Positions 11,221-50,019 are shown, counted from the first letter of the stretch. The stretch is DNA of 64,000 nucleotides from a virus (IMGVR_UViG_3300028887_000070:64001-128000), one strand, 5' to 3'. A program made the numbers and translations. Notes: generated by a model from the letters alone, not told the origin.

Positions 11221-11248
11221 TGTGGGTGGAGAAATCCACCCACACTTT
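11221..11248 (+). terminator. intrinsic terminator hairpin
   Basis: TGTGGGTGGA-gaaa-TCCACCCACA-cttt. Confidence 0.75.
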
Positions 11249-13560: not shown

Positions 13561-15114
13561 CTATGCAACCTTAGGCTCAAGATCGAGACAAGCCTGAATA
13601 TCATCGAGATCATTCTGATCATAAGCATCCATAGACAGATTAACAAAGCTGTTGAGACAGATGAGATTGTTAGTCTGAAGAGATACATTAGTCTCAAACA
13701 GACCAGTGTTTCTGGAGATCTGTCCAACGTAACGTGGGTTGAATACTTCCATACATGCCTTGAGGAACTCCTGATTGATGATGTACATACAGTTCAGAGT
13801 ATCGCCATCGAAGTCTGCATTGAGTCCAGAGAGGATCTCAAGTGGCAGGGACATAGCATATGAATCGAAGTGGATTCCTACTACCTGCATCTGAAGAACT
13901 GACAGAGACCAGATAGACGGATTACGATTGATAAGTACTCCGACATACTCGGAGTTAACTATGTTCATCATAATGTCATAGATCTCTCTGCTTGGATTGA
14001 TAGTTGCCATGAACCACTTCTGATATGCAATGTGACGAGGCATAGTCTTTGAGAGGATATTAACTATTCTGAACTCAAGGAGTTCTACCATAGTTGCATA
14101 TGGAAGTATAACCTGATCTATCTCAAGATCACTATTCGGAACGATTACCGATCTAGCACAGAAGTTATATCTACCACCTATAGTAGAACGTACAAGTCCC
14201 TTCTTATGAGAGAGCTGCTTCTCGAGATCTGCATAGATCTCCATCCACTTAGACTGCATTCTATATAGGATCTGTTTAGCAGGCTTACCAGTACGTCTAG
14301 AGACAAGCTGGTTACGATTGACTCTTGTAGCCTGAGCTGCAAGTATATTGTATAGAGAGTTGTTACCGTCAAAGTTGAACTGACTGTCGTCAAGATTGAA
14401 CGGTCTCAACTGTGTAGTGTATACAGGAATAGAGTGAGTGAACACAATGTCCTTATACTTCATGATGTGTTCATAGTACTCCATCTTCTCTGGTTTCTTA
14501 ACATGTTTGTTTCTATAGAACTCCATGATCTCGTCAAAGCGATCACGGAATGCAAGTATACCCAATCCTACGAATGGGCTACTCTTACTAGGCTTCACCT
14601 CAATAGGTTTACCATCTACATCTATCTTATCATCATTGTCTATGATTGCATCAAACTCCTTAGCACCAATGAATGCAGAGATAGACTTGAACATATTAGG
14701 ATGAATCAGACAATACTTCTCGTCTATACAGATCCATCCAAACTTCTCGAAGTCATCACCCATATAGTCTACAGGCTGATGACAGAACTCACAGATCTGT
14801 CCATAGTGCAATCTACCATTGAGATGATTACACTTGCATCTGTAACGGTTAGAGTATGCATCCTGATCATTCAGTGTGGGACCGAAGAATGAAGAGAAGA
14901 TACTCTTGTCTGACTTAAGGTCTTTCTTGATATCCTGACGCTTCTCGATGATCATACCTTTGCCTCTCATAAGGTCAGCTTCTCTTTCTTTATCAAGGTC
15001 TATTAGTTCAAGAGACGTCTCATATCTATACTGTTGTCTTGTTTTGGGATTTGATGATACGGGTATTACGGAAAGAGTTGTCCTCTTTTCGTATCTTTGG
15101 TAGTCGCTTAACAT
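13561..15114 (-). CDS. multisubunit RNA polymerase beta' N-terminal subunit (probably virion RNAP)
   Basis: Zn finger CKC..CEFC, GRYNFCARSVI, INRNPSI and catalytic LNADFDGD. Confidence 0.93.
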   Translation of the reverse strand: MLSDYQRYEKRTTLSVIPVSSNPKTRQQYRYETSLELIDLDKEREADLMRGKGMIIEKRQDIKKDLKSDKSIFSSFFGPTLNDQDAYSNRYRCKCNHLNGRLHYGQICEFCHQPVDYMGDDFEKFGWICIDEKYCLIHPNMFKSISAFIGAKEFDAIIDNDDKIDVDGKPIEVKPSKSSPFVGLGILAFRDRFDEIMEFYRNKHVKKPEKMEYYEHIMKYKDIVFTHSIPVYTTQLRPFNLDDSQFNFDGNNSLYNILAAQATRVNRNQLVSRRTGKPAKQILYRMQSKWMEIYADLEKQLSHKKGLVRSTIGGRYNFCARSVIVPNSDLEIDQVILPYATMVELLEFRIVNILSKTMPRHIAYQKWFMATINPSREIYDIMMNIVNSEYVGVLINRNPSIWSLSVLQMQVVGIHFDSYAMSLPLEILSGLNADFDGDTLNCMYIINQEFLKACMEVFNPRYVGQISRNTGLFETNVSLQTNNLICLNSFVNLSMDAYDQNDLDDIQACLDLEPKVA

Positions 15115-17007: not shown

Positions 17008-17031
17008 GTCGGTGGGAGCAATCCCACCGAC
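17008..17031 (+). terminator. terminator hairpin
   Basis: GTCGGTGGGA-gcaa-TCCCACCGAC. Confidence 0.7.
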
Positions 17032-17119
17032 TATCTGTTATCGTTAAACTGAAGGTTGGTTGCATATCATTAAGGTATACAAAGCCAAACGGATCTGTTT
17101 GGTAGAAGGAGGACTTTAT

Positions 17120-23052: not shown

Positions 23053-23096
23053 ATCTATGCCTCCTTTAAGCACGTATTATAAGATAGTTTGAGGCA

Positions 23097-23305
23097 AAAG
23101 AGAGGAGGAGGCCTGTTAAGCCTCCTCAAAGGGGGTGAAGGGTTCGGTAGAGCCAAATCAAGCACCACTTGAAGATTGGATGTCGCTACGCCAAACGACA
23201 ACCGAGGGCTCAATAGGCAATACATGATTGAACCGATAGCTAGAAATGAGTAAATGAATGTGTTAAATAATCCGATAGCGGGACGAATCCGTCAACATCC
23301 CGCTC
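23097..23305 (-). ncRNA. candidate ~200-nt structured ncRNA
   Basis: Promoter AACACTATAGTG (23305-23316), 5' hairpin AGCGGGA/TCCCGCT, terminator GAGGAGGC/GCCTCCTC, no ORF of 60 aa or more. Confidence 0.5.
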
Positions 23306-23333
23306 ACTATAGTGTTGTGAGTGGTGTAAAGTA

Positions 23334-36337: not shown

Positions 36338-37717
36338 TTACGTCCATTCTGCATCTGATATCATCTGGTTATCAACAAGCAGTTTCTTAAGCTGTCTCTT
36401 GATCTGACCATATGATCTAGTCTTCGCAGGATCATACTCAACACCAATAGCACAGCACATTGCCTGATATCTATCGATGCCGTTTCTCTCAGCATCTTGA
36501 TATGCATTGTATGCTGCAGCTGCAAGGTTGACGTCATAAATGACTTTCTCACTGTTGCTCTTAAGATGTTCAATCTCCTTCTTCATAGCTTCGATTGTAG
36601 CCTTGTGTCTCTCATCAGCAGCTTTGAAGTTATCAACTACTTGCTTAGACTTTTCCAAAGCTTCGTTTTGTGTACTGATAATAGATTCAAGCTTAGCAAT
36701 CGTACCTTCAAGCTCCTTGATCTTCTTATTATAGTCTTTAGGAAGATCTTTCTGCTTCTCAAGAACCTGTTCGAGCTGTTCACGTGCCATTGCTTCTCCA
36801 CAAGCCTGCTCATTGAGCTTCTGATTCTCTTCGACAAGTTCATTCCTCTCCCTACGGAACTCATTCCTTTCTTTCTCAAGCTCCATATACTGATCTTGAA
36901 GTTTGTAGAGTTCTGTATTGTCTTGGTAGAGTCTGAAAGACTTTGGATCTTGTTCGTAGAGATAACTTAGAATACGGTTAACGTTGTATCCTTTCTCTAC
37001 ATATACCATTTTAAAGTCTTCCAGAAGAACCTGTTCTACTGCAGTTTGGTTCATTGTTACTGGAACTGACTCAACTGATGATATAGGGAATGTTATGATT
37101 TGTCCATGATCAAGATACGAGATCGCATTAACGTTCCTGCTCAGGACGTCTGGTGTACTAGGAATCGCACTACGACGATTTCCAGTGATACTTCCGATCA
37201 TACCAGGCTTAGAGCACAATGGGATTCCCCTAGCCAAATGGCTATCGCACCAGAGCACGAGAACGGGGCGATGAGCACCTGCTATAAGCTCGTTTTCGAT
37301 ATCGTCTTTCTCATCGAAGACACCTGAAGTGATAACTACATCTCCAGGCTGAACTAATGGTCTGTTGAACTGCTTCACCATATTTTTGTTAAGTATAAGA
37401 TTGGGTCTGTTCTTCTTACTAGAATCGACGATAGGCACTTTAACAGTCTTAGGAGTTTCGACTGTATCTAGAAGAGTGATAGCCTCAGTCTTCGGTTTCG
37501 GAGGCTCTATAACTACTGGTTCTGAAATGGGGAGCTTTGATTCAGTAGCTTCAATAATCTTGGCCTCTACAGAAGCTTCTTTCTTCGATAAATCTTCTTC
37601 GATTTGGGATTTGGTTTCTTCCACTGTCGGTGTAATAGGTGATAGTTCTTGGATCTTCTTCGAACCGATGTAAAAGGTGTTATTGCTTCGGTTCTTTTTC
37701 TTCTTACGTGATTGCAT
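36338..37717 (-). CDS. PemK/MazF-like domain protein with C-terminal coiled coil
   Basis: QPGDVV..HRPVLVL..IPLCS..SYLDHGQIITF; early motif 37762-37780. Confidence 0.55.
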   Translation of the reverse strand: MQSRKKKKNRSNNTFYIGSKKIQELSPITPTVEETKSQIEEDLSKKEASVEAKIIEATESKLPISEPVVIEPPKPKTEAITLLDTVETPKTVKVPIVDSSKKNRPNLILNKNMVKQFNRPLVQPGDVVITSGVFDEKDDIENELIAGAHRPVLVLWCDSHLARGIPLCSKPGMIGSITGNRRSAIPSTPDVLSRNVNAISYLDHGQIITFPISSVESVPVTMNQTAVEQVLLEDFKMVYVEKGYNVNRILSYLYEQDPKSFRLYQDNTELYKLQDQYMELEKERNEFRRERNELVEENQKLNEQACGEAMAREQLEQVLEKQKDLPKDYNKKIKELEGTIAKLESIISTQNEALEKSKQVVDNFKAADERHKATIEAMKKEIEHLKSNSEKVIYDVNLAAAAYNAYQDAERNGIDRYQAMCCAIGVEYDPAKTRSYGQIKRQLKKLLVDNQMISDAEWT

Positions 37718-37835
37718 ACACAATCTCCTTTCATGATAGATTAGCATAGGCGTCTATGCTTACTATAATAGTATATAACTCTATAGATACTTACCATACC
37801 CAGAACTTCTAAGTAATCGGAAAAGGAGGAGTTAC

Positions 37836-43977: not shown

Positions 43978-44010
43978 TGTAATCTTTTAGCAAACTTACA
44001 ACAATATAGT

Positions 44011-44111
44011 ATGGCGGTGCAGCTATGCACTTAGGCTCTAACAGCAATACTTCTTGTTAAAATGGTATAACAGTACGGAGCCTAGCTATGAAGCTCAGCA
44101 GCACCTGCCAT
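44011..44111 (+). ncRNA. candidate 101-nt structured ncRNA
   Basis: Late promoter 44000-44011; 5' ATGGCGGTGC pairs with 3' GCACCTGCCAT; inner TAGGCTC/GAGCCTA and TGTTA/TAACA stems; downstream hairpin. Confidence 0.65.
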
Positions 44112-44116
44112 ATCCC

Positions 44117-44150
44117 CTTACCGTAGTGGAAGTGTCCACTACGGATAAGT
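44117..44150 (+). terminator. terminator hairpin after the candidate ncRNA
   Basis: CCGTAGTGGA-agtg-TCCACTACGG. Confidence 0.7.
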
Positions 44151-44228
44151 TGTCTTAAAACGTCTTTTGACTACATATCATACCTTTGAGTCGAGACCTA
44201 TACTAAGACTCAGAAAGGAAATGAAACT

Positions 44229-49985: not shown

Positions 49986-50019
49986 GGGAGGTGTGGAGCA
50001 ATCCACACCTTCTTTTTTG
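49986..50019 (+). terminator. intrinsic terminator
   Basis: AGGTGTGGA-gcaa-TCCACACCT then TCTTTTTT. Confidence 0.8.

Follow-up and report, generated by a model that had tools for sequence, protein, structure and literature searches.

In the genome of an uncultured giant phage from the cattle gut, the gap between a helicase gene and the next open reading frame carries what we read, on a modest balance of probability, as a stand-alone gene for a late small non-coding RNA of a new family. Comparison across the genome and among relatives brings out its components: an AR9-type late-promoter-like motif, a 101-nt RNA with a closed fold, and a hairpin of terminator class. From these we infer where transcription would start and end, and that it would be late. 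An earlier sequence-only reading had proposed a late-expressed non-coding RNA; a non-coding, structured plus-strand unit with a late-promoter motif and a terminator-class hairpin stands, while stand-alone transcription is the predicted part of that proposal.

The window, i.e., the whole 64,000-nt stretch analyzed here, represents bases 64001–128000 of a 231,846-bp IMG/VR virus record (G+C 41%). The source is a jumbo phage related to Bacillus phage AR9, and related contigs originate from bovine and rumen metagenomes. The 231.8-kb genome encodes a split RNA polymerase made of two beta-like fragments and one beta'-like piece, the nearest cultured relatives of which (~30% identity) are found in phiR1-37, AR9-like Bacillus phages, and Staphylococcus jumbo phages (S6-type). 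Profile searches of the phage genome found no sigma-70 region 2 family and, in a search run without a positive control, no T7-type polymerase family. In two regions outside the window, genome 175487–175871 and 158692–158765, the ARAGORN calls are one tRNA-Gln and a tRNA-Thr that is doubtful and would contain a 287-nt intron.

The motif AACA-(6N)-TA/G is found at 94 late start sites of AR9, its last base being the transcription start, and the early promoters of AR9 follow AAATATATATTAT-(6N)-G (PMC5312081). Both classes are recognizable in this genome. The late pattern AACA-(6N)-T[AT] has 42 sense matches in 15.3 kb of gene-upstream DNA, versus 12.5 expected and 16 in antisense; these sites typically lie 19–41 nt before an ATG and have the extended consensus gAACATCTnWRTAa. 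The early class (TATATACTAT/TATATTATAT) is concentrated in intergenic DNA, with 18 of 40 core sites located there. Because the late and early motif classes are enriched where expected, an AR9-like promoter grammar is in use by the phage. At early-class sites of the form (T)ATATAYTAT-(6N)-G, the base after the 6-nt spacer is mostly G and often opens a 5'UTR hairpin.

The RNA locus occupies the 251-nt gap at 43978–44228, between an SF1 helicase gene and a 238-aa ORF that sits in a region of replication genes (helicases, gyrase). Features are collected in Table 1. The helicase, whose homologs are graded from 91 to 45% identity, was used as the anchor to find relatives. The early-type promoter of the downstream gene follows the terminator-class hairpin in every lineage, RNA-bearing or not, and its predicted start opens a conserved 5'UTR hairpin followed by a ribosome-binding site.

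Table 1. Features of the RNA locus and its surroundings, in window coordinates.
Feature	Position	Strand	Basis
Beta'-like RNA polymerase piece	13561–15114	minus	Homology search
Upstream gene, SF1 (PIF1/RecD/Dda-like) helicase, 403 aa	42766–43977	plus	Pfam AAA_19, AAA_30, PIF1
AR9-type late-promoter-like motif AACA-ATATAG-TA (AACAATATAGTA), predicted start A44011	44000–44011	plus	Sequence, class enrichment, conservation
Structured RNA core, 101 nt, closed by terminal helix	44011–44111	plus	RNAfold −33.6 kcal/mol, z −1.95; covariance model R1, 75.8 bits; covariation
P1, 5' strand, ATGGC+GGTGC	44011–44020	plus	Pairs with 44101–44111, T44106 bulged: ATGGC/GCCAT (44011–44015/44107–44111), GGTGC/GCACC (44016–44020/44101–44105)
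Two exclusive pairings: local hairpin GTGCA-GCTA-TGCAC or rod extension (GCT 44022–44024/AGC 44097–44099)	44017–44030	plus	RNAfold, RNAalifold, relatives
P3, 5' strand, TAGGCTC	44032–44038	plus	Pairs with GAGCCTA 44078–44084; 100% paired
Conserved, mostly unpaired segment TAACAGCAATACTTC, consensus U-N-ACAGCA-R-U-N-CUYY	44039–44053	plus	Alignments; candidate functional surface
P3b, apical stem-loop, TGTTA-AAATGGTA-TAACA	44055–44072	plus	44055–44059 pairs with 44068–44072
P3, 3' strand, GAGCCTA	44078–44084	plus	Pairing alignment
P1, 3' strand, GCACC-T-GCCAT	44101–44111	plus	Sequence, RNAfold
Single-stranded C/U-rich tail ATCCCCTTA between P1 and hairpin	44112–44120	plus	Sequence not conserved
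Terminator-class hairpin CCGTAGTGGA-AGTG-TCCACTACGG, 10 bp, then pyrimidine-rich tail 44145–44158	44121–44144	plus	Folding, genome-wide class, relatives
Early-type promoter of downstream gene, ACTACATATCAT-(ACCTTT)-G, predicted start G44188	44170–44188	plus	Fits AR9 early consensus; kept in relatives
5'UTR of downstream gene: hairpin GAGTC...GACTC (44188–44211) and ribosome-binding site AAAGGA	44188–44228	plus	Sequence, folding, relatives
Downstream gene, 238 aa	44229–44945	plus	ORF; matches no family

The sequence-only reading had described a bulged terminal helix, a 7-bp stem, and an apical stem-loop. All three are present in the sequence, and RNAfold recovers the first two. An AGCT/AGCT pairing that it also proposed is disfavored by folding and by the relatives, which point instead to the GCT/AGC rod extension or the local hairpin. 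RNAalifold chooses the local hairpin. In the relative L070, both options are retained with a changed sequence, the hairpin as GATGC-GATT-GCATC, with three double changes at its pairs, and the rod as the minimum-free-energy fold; because both survive there, we make no choice between them. The segment at 44039–44053 is conserved in the window, L069, L003, L002, and L070, and has no consistent pairing partner. In a shuffle test, the 101 nt reach a z score of −1.95, compared with −1.5 to −3.3 for the relatives and −4.1 for the whole gap with its hairpins. The minus strand of this genome folds about equally well, which makes folding energy indecisive for strand. As the folding energy is modest and the opposite strand folds as well, the case for the RNA is built on comparison rather than on thermodynamics.

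Seven related lineages, with helicase identities of 91–62%, keep the promoter motif, the closing helix, and the hairpin. The RNA is present in the window, L069 (91%), L003/L117/L197 (89%), L002/L202/L203 (84%), and L070 (78%), and in the more distant L072 (68%, where it measures ~60 nt) and L073 (62%). It is absent from L076 (59%) and L077 (56%), which carry a promoter-like block with AACT for AACA, ~12 nt, and the hairpin, and from L074 (61%) and L078 (54%), where the early promoter is the sole element upstream of the downstream gene. In L076 (3712–3857) and L077 (2587–2746), the AACT-(6N)-TA block followed by a hairpin has the form of a dead promoter or a ~45-nt mini-transcript. Because the distant relatives (61–54%) lack the RNA, and in L076 and L077 the hairpin comes directly after the helicase, the RNA was probably gained or expanded in one sub-clade, where it came to separate the helicase stop codon from a terminator that was already there.

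A covariance model, R1, was built from six sequences and used to search the genome, the window, and 34 loci. It scores 75.8 bits in the window, 75.8 in L069, and 34.3 in L070, and does not find L072 and L073, which are positional homologs only. Covariation among homologs, which the sequence-only reading had proposed as a check, is seen as compensatory changes: in a nine-sequence pairing alignment that was fitted to the covariance model, 98.9% of pair cells hold standard pairs, and both sides change in 7 of the 22 pairs. None of 500 shuffles reach the observed pairing, and slid controls are 29–46% paired. The independent covariation events are few, mainly those of L070 plus one G-C/A-U switch. 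P3 changes from G-C to A-U in four sequences and from U-A to A-U in L070, where pairs in P1, the local hairpin, and P3b are altered as well. In P3b, every cell is paired and one pair is doubly changed, and there are two U-G wobbles, which would be A-C on the other strand; G-U/U-G wobble pairs are compatible with the plus strand only. Similarly, a side hairpin found in some relatives (P4) goes from GAUUC/GAAUC to GAUCC/GGAUC in L203, and the rod extension switches from G-U to G-C between L002 and L202. The closing helix is kept with differing sequences (TGGCGGT/ACCGCCA, GGCGGA/TCCGCC, ATGCGC/GTGCAT, and ATTGCGAA/TTCGCAAT), those of L072 and L073 being quite different.

Columns 1–77 of the RNA have identities of 0.89, 0.93, 0.85, and 0.67, where four-fold sites of the helicase have 0.68, 0.71, 0.56, and 0.47. 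The 3' third, unlike the 5' two-thirds, is conserved at or below neutral expectation. Conservation across seven lineages, compensatory changes, and conservation above silent sites together make the RNA real beyond chance. It is single-copy: blastn-short and R1 found no second copy in the genome, the window, or the 34 loci. A scan of IMG/VR and metagenomes for further relatives yielded only L002/L003 types and one partial contig; when IMG/VR was scanned for the hairpin and promoter patterns, and prokaryote genomes for the core motif, all matches were of the kind expected by chance, and cultured phages had no DNA match.

The strong 3' hairpin of the sequence-only reading exists as a perfect 10-bp stem with an AGTG loop, but it spans 44121–44144, not 44117–44150. 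About 100 intergenic hairpins of 9–16 bp with pyrimidine-rich tails lie at gene ends in this genome, some of them between convergent genes. An apex of the form GTGG(G)A-loop-T(C)CCAC, shared by the hairpin at the RNA locus, occurs 13 times in the genome versus twice in the reversed control, mostly at gene ends, which suggests sequence-specific hairpin tops recognized by a factor or by the phage polymerase. Window examples of this sub-class lie at 11226–11247, 17012–17035, 44126–44147 (the RNA locus), and 49993–50014. The tail of the hairpin studied here (ATAAGTTGTCTT) is among the least U-rich in the terminator class, so read-through is possible; the same hairpin has clear U-rich tails in L070, L073, and L077.

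This tail bears on the main rival explanation, a structured late leader of the 238-aa gene, which we consider unlikely but worth serious attention. The AACA motif would then be the late partner of the gene's early promoter, and the fold and hairpin would form a ~218-nt 5' leader, possibly regulatory. Such an arrangement has a precedent in the 'continuously expressed' genes of AR9, which pair late and early promoters; read-through past the weakly U-rich tail is plausible, and the downstream gene belongs to the replication-gene region. However, paired motifs elsewhere in this genome lie ~50–85 nt from the ATG with no intervening hairpin, whereas a terminator-class hairpin separates the two promoters here. 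Relatives without the RNA retain the early promoter and the gene, and in two of them, L076 and L077, the helicase is immediately followed by the hairpin. Inspection of the fold and the hairpin revealed no alternative pairing able to switch termination, i.e., no anti-terminator, and no Rfam riboswitch aptamer matches the locus.

The promoter motif AACA-ATATAG-TA was confirmed in the sequence, with the predicted +1 at the first base of the terminal helix, as the sequence-only reading had placed it; the chance expectation of the bare 12-nt motif in the gap is ~0.2. The motif is kept as AACAATAWARTA, with an upstream CA, in 7 of 7 lineages that have the RNA, even where helicase identity is as low as 62% and silent-site identity ~40%. 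With this CA, it is more conserved than the RNA itself and present even where the RNA sequence is unrecognizable, and in each of the seven the closing helix begins 0–3 nt beyond the predicted +1. A position weight matrix (PWM) from 29 mRNA late promoters gives the motif a core score of −1.2, where training scores are mostly 10–25; the score is low because of an A instead of a T after AACA and the G-rich start of the transcript. The notion that the RNA has its own phage promoter thus stands as far as the minimal consensus and its conservation in seven lineages go, but since the motif scores poorly against the phage's mRNA late promoters, we treat the promoter as putative.

A sub-type of the motif, CAACA-N-TATA[GT]T, has five genomic copies versus ~0.6 expected, four of the five being intergenic, and precedes another non-coding unit on the minus strand (window 23095–23316; CACAACACTATAGTG). 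Four sub-type sites, at window 23316 (minus) and 43999 (plus) and genome 146927 (plus) and 224699 (minus), precede two non-coding units and two genes with unusually long leaders (76–94 nt). The likeness between the RNA locus and the intergenic region at genome 224.7 kb is confined to a 15-nt promoter block.

The second rival explanation, which we rate as improbable, denies the RNA a promoter of its own and makes it a 3'UTR element of the helicase operon, a tail that would protect against 3' exonucleases or yield a 3'UTR-derived small RNA. The weak PWM match agrees with this, as does the location of the RNA: on one side is the stop codon of the helicase, and on the other a hairpin that in L076 and L077 comes directly after the helicase. 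A promoter block that outlasts the RNA across seven lineages, a helix that starts at a fixed distance from the predicted +1 every time, and the same promoter sub-type ahead of another non-coding RNA in the genome all argue against it.

The RNA belongs to no known family, as the sequence-only reading had supposed: Rfam cmscan of the whole window at gathering thresholds gave no match, and at E<=10 three short stretches (window, L003, and L073) gave only sub-threshold noise on hairpins. In L002 (6584–6643), the hairpin and ribosome-binding-site region has a sub-threshold match to cow-rumen-4 (26.3 bits versus a gathering threshold of 48.5), probably a terminator look-alike. The reading had gone further and compared the bulged terminal helix and a tRNA-like arm to Y-RNA/tRNA-mimic architecture, with an anticodon-like loop and a role as a Ro60 ligand or a decoy for anticodon nucleases.

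Two related ideas of this sort can be formulated. The first, which we regard as highly doubtful, is that AR9-like gut jumbo phages make a polymerase-specific set of late small RNAs that act as protein decoys, in which a GC-rich 6–7-bp closing helix and the 3' overhang next to it (A-CCA in two lineages) would pass for the acceptor minihelix of a tRNA, so that the RNA would soak up a host tRNA-directed defense nuclease or a processing enzyme late in infection. The second, more doubtful by a shade, is a tRNA-like or Y-RNA-like mimic proper, the closing helix serving as an acceptor or Ro60-binding stem of a decoy for host tRNA-directed nucleases or of a Ro60 ligand. The length and G+C richness of the helix (6–7 bp, GGCGG/CCGCC) fit this second idea, as do the A-CCA that follows it in the L003 and L002 lineages and its extension in L197 to 7+5 bp, which is as long as an acceptor/T-stem minihelix.

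The remaining evidence speaks against mimicry. ARAGORN (-ps, -ps80, -i, and -mt) found no tRNA, whether in the window, in its relatives, or in the RNAs excised from them, and cmscan at E<=10 on the short stretches matched neither tRNA nor Y RNA, so that a tRNA (RF00005) cloverleaf was rejected. The ACCGCC-A-CCA end is found only in the L003 and L002 lineages and is absent from the window, L069, L070, L072, and L073. An acceptor end with a T arm was likewise rejected, the 3' strand continuing as GCC-ATATCC in the window, GCC-ATAAAC in L069, and GCC-TACCTA in L070, with no hairpin abutting it. The T44106 bulge is specific to this genome (absent from L069, L003, L002, and L070), and the supposed anticodon-like loop varies in length and sequence among relatives. 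TROVE/Ro60 (PF05731) and RtcB (PF01139) genes are absent from the 231.8-kb phage genome, whereas control genomes were positive; for this reason, and because there is no Rfam match and the bulge is not conserved, Y RNA/YrlA was rejected as an identity, and neither the Ro60 ligand nor the anticodon-nuclease decoy is supported. As neither the bulge nor the CCA-like end is conserved, the tRNA/Y-RNA reading as a whole is unsupported.

Other identities fared no better. 6S RNA, a ~180-nt rod with a promoter-like bubble, gives no Rfam match, while the RNA here measures 101–138 nt and its loop sequences are not conserved; 6S-like mimicry by an 'extended -10' (TGGTATAAC) or a UA-N5-UGUU template-strand mimic is not conserved in L002 and L070. 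The tail box considered as an anti-Shine-Dalgarno seed against this phage's ribosome-binding site (AAAGGAGG) reads UCCCCUU here and CCACCUUU in L003/L002, and is missing from L070, L072, and L073. In a search for complementarity to other phage sequences, the longest match is 13 nt, no more than chance would give, and its orientation is wrong. A link to a suspected MazF-like gene (ORF at window 36338–37747, minus) was dropped because Pfam gives the ORF no match at E<=0.01, PemK/MazF included.

The sequence-only reading had also stated that the region holds no ORF or ribosome-binding site. There is indeed no ribosome-binding site and no conserved frame, but the predicted +1 falls on the first base of an ATG that opens a 7-codon frame (MAVQLCT-stop). 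Frames from this ATG run to 7, 10, 19, 26, 29, 31, and 49 codons across lineages, with no ATG in L073, and indels in relatives do not come in multiples of three. A leaderless micro-peptide from ATG 44011 (44011–44034) is unlikely. Least probable of all is that the locus is no RNA gene, being instead a DNA-level palindromic insert (a small mobile element remnant) or a leaderless micro-ORF: its terminal inverted repeats, the similar folding of both strands, the coincidence of ATG and +1, and the 26–49-codon frames of L069, L002, and L070 could be read in that way, but the element is single-copy, its wobble pairs suit the plus strand only, its internal helices have compensatory changes, the frame has 7 codons here, 10 in L003, and no ATG in L073, and conservation of the 5' part exceeds neutral expectation.

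If the locus is a stand-alone late RNA gene, the following sequence of events can be envisaged. The phage's AR9-like non-virion RNA polymerase would start late in infection at A44011 and stop, at least partly, at the hairpin at 44121–44144, giving a product of ~135–150 nt. As comparison among relatives shows, its first 101 nt fold into a closed, rod-like, multi-helix structure in which the ends pair (P1) and a 7–9-bp P3 carries the apical stem-loop, with P4 as a side hairpin in some relatives. The paired ends and the 3' hairpin should stabilize the RNA. The conserved, largely unpaired segment 44039–44053, displayed on P3, might be the working surface, perhaps acting in trans by protein binding or base-pairing. 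Comparison also suggests that the unit arose in its single sub-clade when the stretch from the helicase stop codon to the operon's older terminator expanded.

Among known systems, the late units of AR9 are the closest in their AACA-(6N)-TA/G grammar with the last base as start, their split multisubunit phage RNA polymerase, and the separate early promoter type (ATATATTAT-(6N)-G). Abundant late transcripts of AR9 have no ORF assigned to them, and Table S3 lists late transcripts as 'antisense' (PMC5312081). However, the polymerase piece is only ~30% identical, AR9 has no known homologous RNA, none of its late transcripts is described as forming a family of folded small RNAs, and the start in our phage is predicted rather than mapped. 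The virulent jumbo phage PA5oct has four stand-alone, ORF-less transcripts found by RNA-seq (ncRNA001–004; 236–619 nt) with no family match (PMC7318152). The RNA described here is similarly ORF-less and outside known families, but those of PA5oct use the host polymerase, have no described structure, and are unrelated in sequence, and ours is defined by comparative structure, not by expression. Like 6S RNA and Y RNA/YrlA, it has its ends paired in a long helix with interruptions, which encloses a conserved region without pairing; unlike 6S RNA, it is far shorter, matches no Rfam family, and has no conserved promoter-mimic bubble that we could find, and unlike Y RNA/YrlA, it has no Rfam match and comes from a phage with no Ro60 gene. 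The small stable RNAs RNAC and RNAD of bacteriophage T4 are further stand-alone phage transcripts without ORFs.

Giant phages with their own RNA polymerases are known almost solely through their proteins, and a dRNA-seq study of phiKZ posed the late use of small RNAs by such phages as an open question (PMC8244752). The locus described here is a compact and comparatively well-defined candidate, with an own-type promoter, a fold backed by compensatory changes, a terminator, and a clear gain in one sub-clade, and the RNA is short enough to synthesize for pull-down or structure probing. As the genome holds another such unit, non-coding RNAs made late may be a regular part of these genomes.
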